Part shown: positions 46,022-57,287 of the stretch, one piece after another
How the letters are laid out: each line of letters starts with the position of its first letter
Numbering within the stretch: the first letter of the stretch is position 1
Assembly: GCA_947089915.1 (NCBI GenBank)
Contig: CAMUMB010000001.1
Location: forward strand, 1,581 to 65,580
Reading direction: 5' to 3'
DNA from: an uncultured Bacillales bacterium
GTDB lineage: Bacteria; Bacillota_I; Bacilli_A; RF39; UBA660
DNA: 64,000 nucleotides
Made by a program: the position numbers and the translations under genes
Notes under the pieces: model-generated
What the model was told of the DNA's origin: nothing
Databases searched by the model: none
Seen by the model: only the letters and a program-made list of their open reading frames with translations

Positions 46022-47760
46022 TTATCGCACTTTACACTTATATTTTGATTTATTTGGTATACTTTCCTTATCGATTGGTGAAATCGTATAATTATGCAAA
46101 AGTTCTACTATTTTTGTCATTTTATTTAAGGCAAGGTTATCATTTGTTGGACAATCTAATAATTCATTTAATCTGGTCCAAACAAATTGTGCATCTTCTT
46201 GTTTTTCTGAATCTAAGCTTTGCATTTGCTGCAATATATAAAATTGTATTTCAATTATTTCATATGGAAAGATATCTTTAATTAAGATTTTTTCTTTCCG
46301 ATTTTGATAAGCGGAAACTATTTCTAAATTTTGTTTTTCTAATTCTTGACTATATTCTGCATCTGCCTTTTTTGTAACTGGTTTTTGCACATCTATTGGA
46401 GTATCTTCTTTTGTTTGACAATTCAATTCGCTCTCTTTTTCTGTTCCATGTGAATTCGAATTATTTTTACCATTTTCTAAATTAAGATTAAGTTTAGTCT
46501 TCTGTACTTCTACCAATTTTTCAAAATCTTGAACAATAGACTTCCAAATACTCTGTTCTTCTTCAGTTAATAAAACTGTTTCATCTAATTTATCATAAGT
46601 AGGTCCATATAACTTAACGATTACATCATAGTATTTTTTAGTATGTTCATTCCACCACTCAATTTGGAGTATCGCATATTCTTTATCTTCTTCCTTGCAA
46701 TATTCAAACATACTTGTTTTTCTTTTTCGCCCAACTATTGTTTCATTCAAATTTTCTCTGTTTAAATCGCAAGAATTTGAATTTTCAGATTTTAGAGATT
46801 TTATACCTTCCTCTATTGTTTTGTAAACAAGAGAAAGATTACTATATACTGTTTTTTTTCACATTTTAAAATACCTGCAACTTGGTCTATAGAATATTTA
46901 GGACGATCAATTCCATTTATATATGTAAAAACAATTTTTAAATCTGTTGAAAAATCATCTAAAATTTCTTGTAACTGTTCTTCTGTCATGTTAAATTGAG
47001 ATAAAAATTCCTCTTTTCCACTATATATTTTGGGTATATCTGTTGAATTCAAATTATCTTTAGTATCTTTTAAAGTGGCAGAAACTGAATTGGCTTTTTT
47101 ATGATCTTCAGGAATAACCTTTTTTTGAATTGGTACAATCTCAGGATTCTTTTTTTCTGGAATAGGGATTGTTATATTTTCTATCATTGTAATATCTCGA
47201 TTTTCTAATAATTTCCCTGTTTGATATGCTTCTAATGCATGATTAACCGCATTTAAACATTTCACTACCTCATCATTACTACATCTTAACTTATCTGCAA
47301 TTTTATAAATATCTAATTTCTTCTTATAATACCCTATAAAACAAGATTTTTGAATTTTAGGTAAGGTATTCAAAATAGCATTGATTTCCGCTACTGTTAC
47401 TTCATAAGTTTGCAAGATATTGCTAATACTATGATAAGTTTTTACATTACTATTTTGATAATTGACTGGCAATTCAAATTTATGGATAAAATAGTTTTTA
47501 ATTTGATAGAAGGAACAACCTTTTTGTTTTAATATCTCTGCAATCAAAAGATAGTTTTCAAATTGAAGTGCACTTTTTTGAAACAATAATTCTTCTGATT
47601 CTGTAAGTACTGCCTTATTATTTTCCTTTAAATAGTTTCCCCACTTTTTTGAAAATATCTTACGAATCGTAAATGGAATAGCGCTATAGACACAATCAAT
47701 TAGATCTCCACTAAAATCTTTATAATATGTATAAATATTTTTTTCATCACGATAGTTCAT
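46022..47760 (-). pseudogene. Gene for a protein with sigma-70 region-4-like HTH, split in two ORFs (46813-47760 and 46022-46750) by a frameshift at an A8 homopolymer (T8 on plus strand, 46852-46859)
   Basis: An extra A in the run makes one continuous ORF of about 570 aa that reads directly into the downstream ORF. The downstream ORF has only a TTG start and no SD of its own. HTH LPKIQKSCFIGYYKKKLDIYKIADKLRCSNDEVVKCLNAVNHALE. Confidence 0.6.
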
Positions 47761-47803
47761 ACAAATCACTCCTTAGTTTTAAAGACAATAAAAAAGAGGG
47801 TGT

Positions 47804-47815
47804 CCCCCCCCCCCC
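47804..47815. repeat. C12 / G12 homopolymeric tract in the 5' leader of the sigma-like gene (G12 on the transcribed minus strand)
   Basis: Read directly. About 45 nt upstream of ATG 47760. Followed on the minus strand by ACA-CCCTC-TTTTTT. Confidence 0.9.
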
Positions 47816-47895
47816 GTTTACAAATAGCAAACCTTTATATTTTTATACTACGCAAACTATATTACAATTGAATTGTAACCCTTTTTATTGCTAAT

Positions 47896-47924
47896 ATAAT
47901 ACCATTATTTTTTTATTTTGACAA
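47896..47924 (-). promoter_or_regulatory. Sigma-A-type promoter TTGTCA-N17-TATTAT for the sigma-like gene. Start of a roughly 130-nt leader containing the G12 tract
   Basis: tgacaa 47919-47924, ataata 47896-47901 on plus strand. Homologous to promoter at 56042-56070. Confidence 0.5.
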
Positions 47925-49250: not shown

Positions 49251-49742
49251 TTATTTTTTATAGGTTTTTTGCTTTTCTAATAAAGATTCTAACTTATGAT
49301 TAAAAACAACTTTTAAATCATTTTGATCTGGATACTTATTATTTACTTCTTTGCATGTTAATATAACCTGTTCTAACCACAAAAATAATTGTTCTAAAAA
49401 ACTATTGGCAGTTTCGATACTTCCTATATTGTATCTTCTAAAGAATTGATCTAGTATTTGAAATTGTGCCATCTCGTAATATTCCATATTTTCATCTTTT
49501 AGTTTTTCTAATACGGGTATTAAATATTCTCCTTGACAAAAAGGCAATGAGGCATTACATTCATAATTTAAATTTAAATCTGGCTTTTCAAAATCTCTTT
49601 TTCTGTTATAGTAATTTCTTAAATTTGAACAAATTTCCAAATGTCTATCGCTAAACTCTTTTTGGTAAAAGTCCGTACTACCCTCACGCACTGCTAACAT
49701 CACTTTATTTACAATTTCTAATTCAAATATTGGTTGATTCAT
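49251..49742 (-). CDS. Hypothetical cytoplasmic protein, paralogue A (163 aa)
   Basis: MNQPIFELEIVNKVM... and conserved SLPFCQGEYLIPVLEKL block shared with the adjacent gene. Confidence 0.5.
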   Translation of the reverse strand: MNQPIFELEIVNKVMLAVREGSTDFYQKEFSDRHLEICSNLRNYYNRKRDFEKPDLNLNYECNASLPFCQGEYLIPVLEKLKDENMEYYEMAQFQILDQFFRRYNIGSIETANSFLEQLFLWLEQVILTCKEVNNKYPDQNDLKVVFNHKLESLLEKQKTYKK

Positions 49743-50271
49743 TTTTTACTTCCCTTCTAAAATCGGGTCTTTGGCGATTTATTTTTTGCTTTACTTCGGA
49801 TTCCTCATAATATTCTTTCAATATTATACAGACTTTTGAATATAAGATAGATTGAAGTTCATCTTCATCCACAAGCAATCTATGATTTTCATCATATGTA
49901 TCTACATATTTTTTAAGATAGGAAAATAAGTTACCCAAAAGACTTTCATCGGATATTGGTACTTCTGTAGAACAATAAATATAGAACTTATTTAGTATCG
50001 ATTGCAATGCCAAATCATAGTATAAGCTACTCTCTTCTCCTAACTTTTTTAATAAAGGTACTAAATAATCTCCATTACAAAATGGCAAAGACTCAATACA
50101 GCATTTTGCTTTTTGATCTTTATTTTTTTGGTCAAAAGAGATTGTTCTTAATACATAATTCACATCACAGTGACTATAAGATAATTCTCTTTGATAGAAA
50201 TCCACTTTCGCATGGCTCATTTTTTCCATAATTTCATTTACAATAACTAATTCATAAATTGGTTGATTCAT
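49723..50271 (-). CDS. Hypothetical cytoplasmic protein, paralogue B (182 aa)
   Basis: MNQPIYELVIVNEIM... and SLPFCNGDYLVPLLKKL. ATG at 50271 has GGGAGTGA SD. The ORF-track upstream extension overlaps the tuf 3' end. Confidence 0.5.
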   Translation of the reverse strand: MNQPIYELVIVNEIMEKMSHAKVDFYQRELSYSHCDVNYVLRTISFDQKNKDQKAKCCIESLPFCNGDYLVPLLKKLGEESSLYYDLALQSILNKFYIYCSTEVPISDESLLGNLFSYLKKYVDTYDENHRLLVDEDELQSILYSKVCIILKEYYEESEVKQKINRQRPDFRREVKNESTNI

Positions 50272-54809: not shown

Positions 54810-55916
54810 CTATTCACTTAATTGTAGCCATACATTATAGATATTAGAAGTTATTTCAGTGTTACCGCTTTTATTTCTCCTTATTTCAAAATATCCAAGT
54901 CCGTCTATTGTTAATATGTTGGTAGACAATACCTTTCTATCAAGTACTTCTGTATACCCTCCAGAGGCACCGGTTTTAAACAAAACTGGCACCGCAAGTA
55001 TCTGCCGACTACTGTTATCTAGCAAATTTACCTCTTCATAAAAGAAATATTCAAAGGCTAGATTAACTATTGGTTGATCTTCTGGAACATGTGATGTTGC
55101 AGATACATCTACATAAATATATGCATAATCAGTCAAATTGATTGGATCTTTCGTATATATTCCCCGACGTTCTTCATTATCTCCTGTAATTTCTAAATAT
55201 AAATAATCTTCTTGTGCTGTCAGTTCTGCTTTATAAGTCTCAAACTCTGCTAGCATTTCCCCATCTAATATAAGATAGTCTGCTAGTTTCTTCGTATCAG
55301 AACATACTTCTGTTTTGCCATTCGTTGTACATACCTTTGCATATGCTGCTTCTGATGGATAAATACATGTATTATTTTCATTCATACCTAAAGCAGTAAT
55401 ATCATCTTCTGTTTTGCCGTAATAACATTTCGTTTCTTTTACAAATGTATTCATTTGTGATTCATAATTTAATATCACTTGAGTATCTGTAAAATTTTTG
55501 CTACTCCAATTTGGTTTGGGCAAATATACGCTAGTATCTCCCACACAATCCTCTCTATCTATTATCTTAGGACTTTCATCATAACCTTTTTCAACACAGT
55601 ACTTTCCTATTTTAGCAATTATACTCATTTGATTGTTTTCTCCTATTACGAGTATTCCACTTTCTGGTTTAGATCCTTTATAAGTTAAGATATCACCTGT
55701 TAAATCAATTGTTTGTTGATATTCTTCTCCTTCTAACATCGATTCCAATTGATAGTTCTCTGCTGCTTCTAAGATCCCATTTACCGATTCTATTGCTGCT
55801 CCTCTTCTTGACTTTTCAATCACATCCATTATCATTGGCGTTGCGATTAGTGCGATTACTGCTAGTATTACGATAACTGCTAATAATTCTACTAATGTAA
55901 ATCCTTTTTTCTTCAT
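54810..55916 (-). CDS. Type IV pilin-like protein (prepilin-type N-terminal cleavage/methylation domain, 368 aa)
   Basis: MKKKG-FTLVELLAVIVILAVIALIATP: class III signal peptide with G(-1), F(+1), E(+5), followed by a large secreted domain. GAGAGGAAGG RBS. Confidence 0.75.
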   Translation of the reverse strand: MKKKGFTLVELLAVIVILAVIALIATPMIMDVIEKSRRGAAIESVNGILEAAENYQLESMLEGEEYQQTIDLTGDILTYKGSKPESGILVIGENNQMSIIAKIGKYCVEKGYDESPKIIDREDCVGDTSVYLPKPNWSSKNFTDTQVILNYESQMNTFVKETKCYYGKTEDDITALGMNENNTCIYPSEAAYAKVCTTNGKTEVCSDTKKLADYLILDGEMLAEFETYKAELTAQEDYLYLEITGDNEERRGIYTKDPINLTDYAYIYVDVSATSHVPEDQPIVNLAFEYFFYEEVNLLDNSSRQILAVPVLFKTGASGGYTEVLDRKVLSTNILTIDGLGYFEIRRNKSGNTEITSNIYNVWLQLSE

Positions 55917-55962
55917 TCAAATCTTCCTTCCTCTCATAATAAACCATAAAAAAAGGGGTATA

Positions 55963-55973
55963 CCCCCCCCCGT
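55963..55973. repeat. C11 / G11 homopolymeric tract in the 5' leader of the pilin-like gene, within palindrome GGGGTATACCCC...
   Basis: Read directly. On the minus strand: G11-TATA-CCCC-TTTTTTT, about 45 nt upstream of ATG 55916. Homologous context to 47804-47815. Confidence 0.9.
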
Positions 55974-56041
55974 TCACAAATAGCTAACTTGTGTATCTAT
56001 GCTATATGCAAACTATTTTATGATTTATTTTTGATAATTTC

Positions 56042-56070
56042 ATTATAAAGCAATCATATCATTTTGACAA
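56042..56070 (-). promoter_or_regulatory. Sigma-A-type promoter TTGTCA-N17-TATAAT for the pilin-like gene. Start of a roughly 120-nt leader containing the G11 tract
   Basis: tgacaa 56065-56070, attata 56042-56047 on plus strand. Confidence 0.5.
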
Positions 56071-56093
56071 GCTATAATTTGCCTTTTTACATT

Positions 56094-57287
56094 CTAATTT
56101 ACATTATAATATTCTTTCTTCTTTTGTTTTTCTTGTTCTAGAAATTGTTTTGCTTGTTCATATTCGTAGTCATATTTATATGGAATTGCCATTTTCAATC
56201 GAAACACTACATCATAAATTGCTTGATACCAGAAATCACATTCATCTTTCTTGCAGCGAAATGTCTCGTATACATAATCAATTCCTTCTTCTAGTAATTC
56301 ATCTAATAAAATTGGATTATGTTTTCTATAAAATTCTATTTTTGGATATAATTTCAAAAATTCTGTTACACTATCCATCTTTATATTTCCTTTACTTCTA
56401 ATTACAGCCATGTAAAATTGATTGATTTTTTCTCTATCGTAGCCAAGTTGAATCATTAAACTAGATATTTGTATCATTTCCTCATCGGTAATTGGTTTTA
56501 AAACTTCCCCTGTATATTCATTATAATATCCTGCAATTTGATTCCTTATTTCTTTATATTCCTTATCTGTTATTATATTCGTATTAGCAGACTTTACTTC
56601 ATATACAACAGATTTGGTTGAATGTTCTTTTTGAGCATTTGATTCCTTTTCTCCTTTTTTCACCTCTTTTTTTAGTGAGGTTTCAATATTAGAACATAAA
56701 CAAGAATCGATACCTAACTTATAAAGTATCTCTATAATTTTTTGAATATCCGATTCTGTATAAGAATGCTTTTTATCAAAATAACATTCCTGCAATTGTT
56801 TGTGTGTGTAAATTAAGGTATTCATTTCTAATGGAACAGGACCTGATTTTAATTTTTTTCTGGCATTTGCTTCATCACGAATTGTATAAATCCCATAATA
56901 TTCACCAAGCATTATTTGATCTACCATATTGTTTGTAATATCCAACATTTTGTAACACTTCTTTGACTCTATATCTTTTTCTTCTAAGATTCCATTTTCA
57001 ATATTGCGTTCTATCAAATATACTATTACTTGGAAACAATCCACTCCTCTTAAGCCACTATCTTGAAGCATAAGCGAAATAACATAAAAATTACCAAATA
57101 AATTTGAACGTTTATTTTTTAGAAACATTAATATATCCCTGTAACCTAAATATTGTATTGAGCTAAATGTCATATCTTTCATATTCCAATTTTCCCTGTT
57201 TGTTTTTTTTCTGTAATTGTACAACTTTTCTTTTATATTAATCATTTCTGTTTCTAAATAATTCTTAAATTTTTCAATTGCGTCCAT
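56094..57287 (-). CDS. Hypothetical cytoplasmic protein (397 aa)
   Basis: Complete ORF with GAGGAAA RBS and TTGACA-N16-TATACT promoter upstream. No family recognised. Confidence 0.45.
   Translation of the reverse strand: MDAIEKFKNYLETEMINIKEKLYNYRKKTNRENWNMKDMTFSSIQYLGYRDILMFLKNKRSNLFGNFYVISLMLQDSGLRGVDCFQVIVYLIERNIENGILEEKDIESKKCYKMLDITNNMVDQIMLGEYYGIYTIRDEANARKKLKSGPVPLEMNTLIYTHKQLQECYFDKKHSYTESDIQKIIEILYKLGIDSCLCSNIETSLKKEVKKGEKESNAQKEHSTKSVVYEVKSANTNIITDKEYKEIRNQIAGYYNEYTGEVLKPITDEEMIQISSLMIQLGYDREKINQFYMAVIRSKGNIKMDSVTEFLKLYPKIEFYRKHNPILLDELLEEGIDYVYETFRCKKDECDFWYQAIYDVVFRLKMAIPYKYDYEYEQAKQFLEQEKQKKKEYYNVN

Follow-up and report, generated by a model that had tools for sequence, protein, structure and literature searches.

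A multi-copy leader with a G homopolymer in its terminator-like stem, upstream of pilin-like genes in uncultured gut Bacilli

What could be served by an uninterrupted run of G residues in the transcribed leader of a gene for a type IV pilin-like protein? The question is raised by a locus (54810–56070, minus strand) within 64,000 nucleotides (nt) of DNA from an uncultured Bacillales bacterium (GenBank assembly GCA_947089915.1, contig CAMUMB010000001.1), the whole of which is here called the window. The window is ordinary chromosome, carrying priA, eno, tuf, fusA, rpsG, rpsL, murE, clpB and a FemAB-family gene, and its G+C content is 30.6%, where a preliminary description had put the genome under 30%. 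The same description regarded the run as a candidate phase-variation or attenuation switch. The analysis reported here leaves us highly confident that the run belongs to a real, selected, multi-copy regulatory leader, in which a hairpin (P1), the run (Gn) and a terminator-like element follow one another; this leader is a family absent from Rfam. As its working principle we propose tract-length-tuned termination, in which a slippage-prone G tract would tune the leader terminator, a proposal that we give an even chance of being right.

The leader and its family

The pilin cassette lies on the minus strand and begins with a σA-type promoter at 56042–56070 (TTGTCA 56070–56065, 17-nt spacer, TATAAT 56047–56042), which matches consensus at 11 of 12 positions and bears out the promoter first proposed. 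The leader that follows measures ~119 nt, as against the ~120 nt anticipated. Within it, a conserved 5′ box (AAAUCAUAAAAUAG, 56013–56026), its columns near-invariant in alignments of 53 and 59 sequences, leads into the imperfect 13-bp hairpin P1 (55972–56013), which is predicted from folding and from pairing in the family; the 5′ arm of P1 (GUUUGCAUAUAGC, 56013–56001) is followed by a variable loop, and the near-invariant 3′ arm (GCUAUUUGUGAAC, 55984–55972) abuts the G run directly. The conserved box noted earlier, GCTATTTGTGAAC, is present at 55984–55972 and is followed, as described, by the G run, TATA, CCCC and T7. The run itself is G9 (C9 on the plus strand) at 55963–55971, not the G11 at 55963–55973 originally reported, and ends 46 nt upstream of the ATG, close to the ~45 nt first estimated. 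Its 3′-most Gs would supply the 5′ arm of a terminator-like stem, the remainder of which occupies 55948–55962 (loop UAUA 55962–55959, CCCC 55958–55955, U7 55954–55948). The distal leader (55917–55947) has AUGGUUU after the U-run and a purine-rich ribosome-binding site (RBS; GAGAGGAAGGAAG, 55935–55923), and the 368-amino-acid pilin-like gene (54810–55916) starts at the ATG at 55916.

A second cassette on the same strand has its promoter at 47896–47924 (TTGTCA 47924–47919, 17-nt spacer, TG-extended TATTAT 47901–47896), a 5′ box at 47870–47857 identified by pairwise comparison, folding and a covariance model, a P1 5′ arm (GUUUGCGUAGUA) at 47857–47846, a P1 3′ arm ((UU)GCUAUUUGUAAAC) at 47830–47816, a G12 run at 47804–47815, the length implied by the coordinates first given, and the rest of the terminator-like element at 47790–47803 (loop ACA, CCCUC, U6). 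The two cassettes are 78% identical across ~250 nt, and the shared order of promoter, box (GCTATTTGTAAAC in the second), G run, C-rich segment and T-run upholds the earlier view of a duplicated module. Apart from these two, the longest G/C run in the 64 kb measures 5, and the excess over chance claimed for them is real, with five (overlapping) occurrences of G9 in the window where 100 dinucleotide-preserving shuffles lead one to expect 0.03. A covariance model, for which 59 copies served as input, scored the pilin copy at 94.4 bits and the second at 85.4 bits, and with its filters off returned no further copy in the window (next match 20 bits, E=0.4).

The supposed duplication is in fact a family whose members number dozens per genome. 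When a single genome of each species was scanned with a 19-nt box-plus-G6 pattern (GCTATTTGTRAACGGGGGG), 50 loci were returned, all in metagenome-assembled genomes (MAGs) labelled uncultured Bacilli, Bacillales or, once, Clostridia, from human, mouse, rabbit and Hadza gut; a metagenome scan gave only 10 loci, most from the same assemblies as the MAGs, and viral contigs gave no pattern match, which speaks against phage origin. At least 27 copies occur in a single rabbit MAG and ~9–11 in each of two others; in all, ~65 unique leader copies were collected from at least eight uncultured gut Bacilli MAGs, and the covariance model made 68 matches across 61 related loci. In 369 kb of such loci every G/C run of at least 7 (53 of 53) sits in leader context, and run lengths are bimodally distributed (33 and 4 runs of 5 and 6 bases, respectively, and 16, 29 and 4 runs of 9, 10 and 11), a pattern repeated in 86 kb more from remoter relatives. 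The family mode is G10, and the run is pure and at least 8 long, a length prone to slippage, in 59 of the ~65 unique copies. Against Rfam 15, the whole window had no match at gathering thresholds, the pilin leader none at E up to 10, and the leader of the second cassette matches only at E>1; no description of the element was found in the literature searched.

Some leaders are more elaborate. A subset has an extra conserved module of ~60–100 nt between the U-run and the RBS, in the rabbit MAG (loci L014, L018, L024, L025, L029, L030, L033, L041, L045 and L051–L053) as well as in the species of the window (L023, L037, L049, L050); in the rabbit lineage the module contains an inverted repeat, UAUAGUACACU-GAU-AGUGUAUAUA, and in the window's species it reads AGUGGUGUAAAGAAAGGAGUAAAAGAAUUGAAAGUAG... 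Two further copies (L038:774–922 and L048:1–131) have a ~50-nt insertion in the P1 loop that carries a terminator-like hairpin (GAGAGGGUAACCCCCUCU), with both P1 arms and the G10 run kept.

The promoter region also holds sequences resembling the Spo0A box of Bacillus, TTTGTCRAA. One, TTGTCAAAA, coincides with the −35 of both window promoters (56062–56070 and 47916–47924, minus strand), and similar motifs occur in the family consensus at the start of the leader, just after the −10 (ATGTCAAA(A)TAAATCAT), and after the U-run (ATTGTCTAAA). A Spo0A_C-like domain occurs in the product of one regulated gene of a mouse MAG (L010), and in a relative (L079) genes for SpoVA proteins are found together with those for a STAS-domain protein and a sigma-70-family factor, arranged like spoIIAA–sigF.

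Terminator stem and run length

Across the family the promoter retains a −10 hexamer, often TG-extended, at a fixed distance from the leader, and P1 is recovered with 82.7% of alignment cells paired, against 40–46% for a slid partner. The 3′ arm is near-invariant (GCUAUUUGUAAAC) and the 5′ arm varies, by one-sided, pair-compatible changes (C-G 28/U-G 20; A-U 32/G-U 26; A-U 17/G-U 17); no true double compensations were found in P1, the shuffle control equalling the observed value, and formal covariation is uninformative here because the 3′ arm barely varies. Many of the P1 pairs are G-U, which would be A-C mismatches in the antisense strand, and this argues for a hairpin acting at the RNA level in the sense orientation; a DNA palindrome or operator at P1 was considered and is disfavoured, the mismatches being G-U in the sense strand only. 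The G run begins at the nucleotide directly after P1, and P1 or its invariant 3′ arm may be a binding site for a trans-acting factor, a possibility to be taken seriously.

Of the 62 unique copies whose run is unbroken over at least 6 Gs, 59 show, downstream of P1, the succession of Gn, short loop, C-rich segment and U4–9. The last Gs of the run pair with CCCC or CCUC in predicted hairpins of −8.8 to −15.3 kcal/mol, with 3–5 G-C pairs plus 2–6 G-U, so that the geometry of an intrinsic terminator, a G+C-rich hairpin followed by a U-run, is present between promoter and start codon; RNAalifold, run on the model-based alignment, recovered this stem and nothing else. The hairpin first described for a single leader is kept across the family through compensating palindromic insertions at its apex, which keep the stem paired in different lineages (for example GGGG-UAUUU..AAAUA-CCUC and GGGG-UAAA..UUUA-CCCC) and which are the best evidence of selection on the terminator hairpin. 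The variable insert also excludes a fixed-spacing DNA element or promoter-spacer role. A promoter-spacer switch, or an extracytoplasmic function (ECF)-type promoter spanning the run, was likewise rejected, the distance from the run to any downstream motif varying by up to 9 nt while the potential for a hairpin persists; the run does not lie between −35 and −10, the σA promoter being ~70 nt upstream of it. Most copies have AUGGUUU or AUUGUCU after the U-run.

Pairing in the stem does not account for the whole run, since its 5′ Gs have only U as a partner, with which A could pair equally well, and yet the run is still pure in ~59 of 65 copies; purity itself, or recognition specific to G, thus seems to be under selection. 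Copies in which the run has decayed or become locked read GGAGGGGGG, GGTGGGGGG and GAGGGGCG.

Run length varies between independent assemblies at three of eight loci (6/9/10, 8/10/12 and 9/11), in a comparison of assembled sequences that groups loci by flanks that are identical or differ at no more than 2 of 30 bases, with copies taken from different assemblies. At the pilin locus (55963–55971) the window has G9, ERZ941005 and ERZ14650998 (34x coverage) have G10 (L058, L057), and GCA_948579045.1 has G6 (L081); at the second cassette (47804–47815) the window has G12, ERZ941005 has G10 (L004), and ERZ777305 (3.7x) and GCA_948579045.1, which are possibly the same sample, both have G8 (L001, L003); at a third locus, P0013, ERZ14864800 (10.6x) has G11 and Logan SRR17684619 and MGBC103251 have G9. 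Two controls were constant, an interrupted run (GGAGGGGGG) in three assemblies and a T9 run upstream of a pilin paralogue lacking the element in four. In the cross-strain comparison called for earlier, tract length is therefore not invariant among assemblies, both window loci and the third differing with identical flanks, although the differences may be due to poly-G read or assembly error.

Other features of these assemblies were noted alongside. Several contigs start or stop inside the run, and an apparent insertion between run and gene in L002 was dropped as evidence, as it contains a run of N and marks a scaffold join. In GCA_948579045.1 (L081:2386–3148) a different pilin gene comes after the same deacetylase, 397-amino-acid gene and leader, the downstream order being proteins of 215 and 354 amino acids, a DHH protein and rplI, where the window (54810–57287) has the 368-amino-acid pilin and rpsL; the junction reflects either recombination between paralogues, at the leader or the N-terminus that they share, or an assembly chimera. 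In another strain (L066:55–61, Logan SRR24860719), a G7 tract lies inside a partial open reading frame (ORF), cut by the contig end, directly upstream of rpsL, and could be a tract of the frameshift type.

In the mechanism that we favour, transcription would proceed from the strong σA promoter and P1 would form first in the RNA, after which the last 3–5 Gs would pair with CCCC or CCUC, the other Gs being able to form G-U pairs with the U-run, to make a weak intrinsic terminator of 3–5 G-C pairs ~45 nt ahead of the start codon. With a terminator in that position, only read-through transcripts would express the gene. Slipped-strand mispairing at replication would alter the number of Gs, that number would determine how long and how stable the stem is and how many Us stay unpaired, and these in turn would set the share of read-through. 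Where such a leader precedes each of many pilin-like adhesin paralogues, each gene would have its own heritable and reversible expression setting. We infer from these sequences and folds that transcription terminates at the hairpin, that read-through depends on run length and that slippage in vivo is the source of the polymorphism.

RNAfold predictions for G3 to G14 in both window contexts give the core of the hairpin −6.6 kcal/mol at G4 and ~−0.5 kcal/mol for every further G, and each added G turns one tail U into a G-U pair, leaving four free Us at G9 and one at G12. Folding thus points to a graded, rheostat-like dependence on run length rather than a strict switch, with no obvious ON and OFF states of the kind that the preliminary description had envisaged; a longer run would presumably mean more termination.

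Several observations weigh against this proposal. At five of the eight loci there is no length difference, with two assemblies each and three loci from one study; the most deviant lengths (G6 and G8) come from a MAG and from an assembly at ~3.7x coverage; and poly-G is error-prone on Illumina platforms, so that part of the polymorphism may be technical. The predicted energetic effect of each G is small, and the narrow mode of 9–10 across nearly all copies could instead reflect a functional need for one set length. Folding revealed no antiterminator, that is, no leader segment complementary to the C/U arm or to the G run, and P1 adjoins the terminator arm without overlapping it, which makes the escape of transcripts hard to explain except by weakness of the terminator. 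Finally, a leader-carrying relative (L094:5294–7069) encodes a MutL homologue; mismatch repair is thus probably present in the lineage and may damp slippage.

Genes behind the leaders

The 368-amino-acid protein begins MKKKGFTLVELL and has the signal peptide MKKKG|FTLVELLAVIVILAVIALIATP. Matches to PF07963 (E=1.4e-7, 31.2 bits, cutoff 21.2) and TIGR02532 (31.6 bits, cutoff 16.3) agree with its earlier recognition as a pilin-like protein with a class III signal peptide, the features of which are all present (basic leader, G|F-x-x-x-E, hydrophobic helix of ~20 residues). An AlphaFold model (mean pLDDT 83.7) shows a helix over residues 8–61, a small head and an all-beta C-terminal part. In Foldseek searches the latter matched carbohydrate-binding modules (CBM16, CBM4, CBM22), a hyaluronan-binding module and SGBP-B (E=3e-5 to 6e-4, target TM-scores 0.4–0.53), and as modelled it resembles carbohydrate-binding modules and other jelly-roll ligand-binding domains. 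Protein searches returned 2499 relatives at E<1e-5, mostly over the N-terminal third only. TANB77 pilins, considered as possible members of the same family, are of Tad type and 143–236 amino acids long (PMC11680825), and were set aside for that reason.

Similar proteins stand behind most of the leaders. In ~35 of 59 cases the linked ORF is pilin-like, 340–865 amino acids long, with the first ~125 residues 38–87% identical to the window protein and an unrelated C-terminus, and in ~9 instances it encodes a protein starting MKKKGFATSAILY. A Bac_transf priming sugar transferase occurs twice, behind short runs (G6 and G7) with a poor U-run, a TM2 protein and a Spo0A_C-like domain protein once each, and the remainder are orphans. 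The lectin-like pilins, the priming sugar transferase and the TM2 protein are products with a plausible place at the surface or in host interaction. A pilin paralogue downstream of rpmF is without the leader. The second leader-linked family (MKKKGFATSAILYTLLLLF start; L012, L019, L027, L028, L033, L034, L047, L054) has pilin-like charge and a hydrophobic helix, lacks Glu at +5, has no Pfam match and ends in variable C-termini (168–508 amino acids). No prepilin peptidase, assembly ATPase or platform protein was noticed among the named ORFs of the window, where no screen aimed at them was made.

The gene behind the second cassette (46813–47760, minus strand) encodes a 315-amino-acid orphan. Its earlier designation as sigma-like is unsupported, the one match, to the sigma-70 family NF006550, being a sub-threshold, region-4-like helix-turn-helix stretch at residues 117–178 (E=8e-4, 18.9 bits against a cutoff of 173); the protein has no Pfam family and no relative in the PDB, and among 5.8 billion proteins only itself was retrieved.

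A 397-amino-acid orphan gene (56094–57287, minus strand) immediately precedes the pilin promoter and has no terminator between itself and that promoter; it also precedes the leader in L057 and L081 and has only a weak, sub-threshold match to ArlX. Exact-protein look-ups of the pilin, the 397-amino-acid protein and the deacetylase found no record, and that of FemAB gained no further assemblies. Between femAB and tuf, two overlapping ORFs of 163 (49251–49742) and 182 amino acids (49723–50271), both on the minus strand, are visibly paralogous, each beginning MNQPI(F/Y)EL.IVN and sharing SLPFC.G.YL.P.L.KL; neither matches a Pfam or NCBIfam family.

Competing explanations and known systems

Chief among the other explanations, though we consider it rather unlikely, is a factor-dependent attenuator. 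On this view the role of the G run would be constant, P1 and/or GCUAUUUGUAAAC-Gn would be recognised by a protein or small RNA (sRNA) that controls termination or translation across a regulon, and length differences would be neutral drift or sequencing noise. Such a factor would account for the near-invariance of the P1 3′ arm even where pairing permits change, which implies a second constraint such as a binding site, for run lengths tightly centred on 9–10, and for the regulon-like placing of the same leader ahead of functionally linked genes in several species; a precedent exists in Helicobacter pylori RepG, where a leader G repeat is targeted by a C/U-rich RNA (PMC8295292). A mixed case is also possible, with a trans-acting factor and length-dependent responsiveness, as for RepG and tlpB. 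On the other side, no candidate factor or antiterminator was identified in this analysis, no Rfam family matches, the 369 kb of related DNA holds no other long C/G run as a possible partner, and a fixed structural role explains neither purity beyond the needs of pairing nor the length polymorphism.

The RNA:DNA hybrid within RNA polymerase is 9–10 bp long, which is also the modal run length, and P1 ends exactly at the run. This coincidence invites explanations at the level of the polymerase or of DNA, in which the run would cause pausing or transcript slippage, form a stable rG:dC R-loop or a hybrid G-quadruplex that obstructs transcription, or promote recombination between paralogues as the G4 of Neisseria pilE does. 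The exclusive use of G, though A could pair with the U-run, would suit them, as would the arrangement in L081, where a pilin gene other than that of the window follows the same upstream gene and leader, and the conserved ~125-residue N-terminal pilin segment, which is apt for homologous exchange. We nevertheless regard them as improbable, since the argument is inferential throughout, a single G10 run is incapable of an intramolecular quadruplex, the L081 junction falls within sequence shared by paralogues and is possibly an assembly chimera, and the C-run, U-run and compensating stem insertions, explained by an RNA hairpin, would be superfluous.

A strong promoter with a terminator ~85 nt later might also define a gene for an sRNA of ~85 nt, to which downstream expression would be incidental read-through. 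Multi-copy sRNA families are known in other bacteria and offer a precedent, and the sub-threshold Rfam matches are to sRNA families, but at E>1 these are consistent with chance. An RBS and a same-strand ORF follow within 28–160 nt of nearly every complete copy, and the downstream genes are functionally related; in neither window cassette was any other consensus promoter found between terminator and ORF, so that these genes would be promoterless. We think this account quite improbable.

Leader-peptide attenuation of the kind described for Streptococcus gallolyticus pil1 (PMC3894217) has to be considered because an ORF could start 15 nt before the run (xUG CUA UUU GUA AAC GGG...), with the number of Gs setting frame and stop and the ribosome disrupting the terminator. 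At −15, ATG (18 copies) or TTG (34) opens a frame that reads through the run in 52 of the 62 unique copies; divergent relatives keep M-L-(F/V/I/L)-(V/A)-N by synonymous or conservative changes; and the in-frame stop falls at UAA just past the run with G9, and at the UAA of AUUGUCUAA with G10. Every copy in the species of the window, by contrast, has a TAG stop as its −15 triplet, and a Shine-Dalgarno-like motif lies upstream in just 8 of 62 copies, with the consequence that the mechanism cannot operate in that species, though in other lineages, where ATG or TTG is present, it might; moreover, the start codon would fall in the stem and loop of P1, and the pilin copy of the window has only a GTG at −6, without an RBS. 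Overall this is very improbable. Last, the view that the run arose by chance or through an error of sequencing or assembly is effectively refuted by family-wide conservation, for although poly-G is a known artefact of two-colour Illumina chemistry and several contigs end at or in the run, ~65 unique copies from more than 10 independent assemblies and four host types have the run in the same context, always inside the conserved architecture, against a chance expectation of 0.03.

If termination is indeed tuned by tract length, a gut lineage with small genomes would diversify a lectin-like pilus family cell by cell, with a bearing on colonisation, immune evasion and phage resistance. A bolder extension, which we put forward as possible but doubtful, is that the leaders constitute an undescribed class of cis-regulatory RNA and a Gram-positive ‘phasome’ acting via terminator strength, in which each of ~30 copies per genome would set the heritable and reversible expression of one lectin-tipped pilin paralogue, GCUAUUUGUAAAC-Gn perhaps being read by a trans factor in a manner dependent on the number of Gs; the outcome would be combinatorial variation of adhesins in the uncultured Bacilli that inhabit mouse, human and rabbit guts. 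The motif of box, G9–11 and C/U run is compact and searchable, and could allow adhesin expression state to be read from metagenomic reads; assemblies call for care at these leaders, where contigs break and may be mis-joined.

Phase variation driven by repeats has been studied in depth in Gram-negative pathogens and mycoplasmas but is, to our knowledge, barely documented in gut Firmicutes. Poly-G/C contingency loci are familiar from Campylobacter, Neisseria and Haemophilus, and poly-A promoter tracts from the vlp genes of Mycoplasma hyorhinis; the present leaders resemble these in the many G8–G11 tracts per small genome, in the link to surface structures and in the provision of a separate tract for each member of a multigene family, but there the tracts lie in coding regions, where they shift the reading frame, or in promoter spacers, and here in a transcribed leader, as part of a putative terminator stem. 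In Bacillus subtilis pyrG, transcriptional slippage adds poly-G to the 5′ end of the transcript, and this poly-G acts as an antiterminator. That too is a poly-G in a Firmicute leader, pairing with the pyrimidine-rich strand of a terminator, whereas the Gs considered here are encoded in the DNA and would form the terminator itself.

Closer in organisation is the pil1 leader of S. gallolyticus, where the number of GCAGA repeats ahead of a premature terminator determines how much read-through occurs, and pilus expression is heterogeneous as a result (Danne et al. 2014, PMC3894217). Each case is set in a Gram-positive gut bacterium, and in each a simple repeat ahead of a stem-loop terminator lies within the transcribed leader of a pilus gene; the pil1 repeat, however, is a pentanucleotide within a translated leader peptide, the ribosome destabilising the terminator, and the pili are sortase-assembled, whereas here a G homopolymer would itself be the 5′ arm of the stem, the pilins are type IV-like, the leader exists in dozens of copies and the window's species has no usable leader ORF. 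At tlpB (hp0102) of H. pylori, the leader G-repeat is targeted by the sRNA RepG, with post-transcriptional control and gradual output (PMC8295292). The G homopolymer there likewise stands in a leader, differs in length between strains and pairs with a C/U-rich RNA, but its partner is a trans-acting sRNA and the locus is single, whereas here a C/U partner in cis lies immediately downstream together with a U-run, in a multi-copy setting. In Haemophilus influenzae hmw, a heptanucleotide repeat in the 5′ untranslated region forms a hairpin that RNase III processes, and expression scales with the number of repeats (PMC12721329); the repeat is again transcribed and pairs, as a hairpin arm, with complementary sequence rich in G or in pyrimidines, although that hairpin is long, is an RNase III substrate and has no terminator. 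No case in which the mutable repeat itself is the stem of a leader terminator was found in the literature searched. On this comparison, a homopolymer placed in the apparent terminator stem of a multi-copy leader is a feature that sets the present family apart from pil1, tlpB/RepG, hmw, the Campylobacter and Neisseria phasomes and vlp alike.

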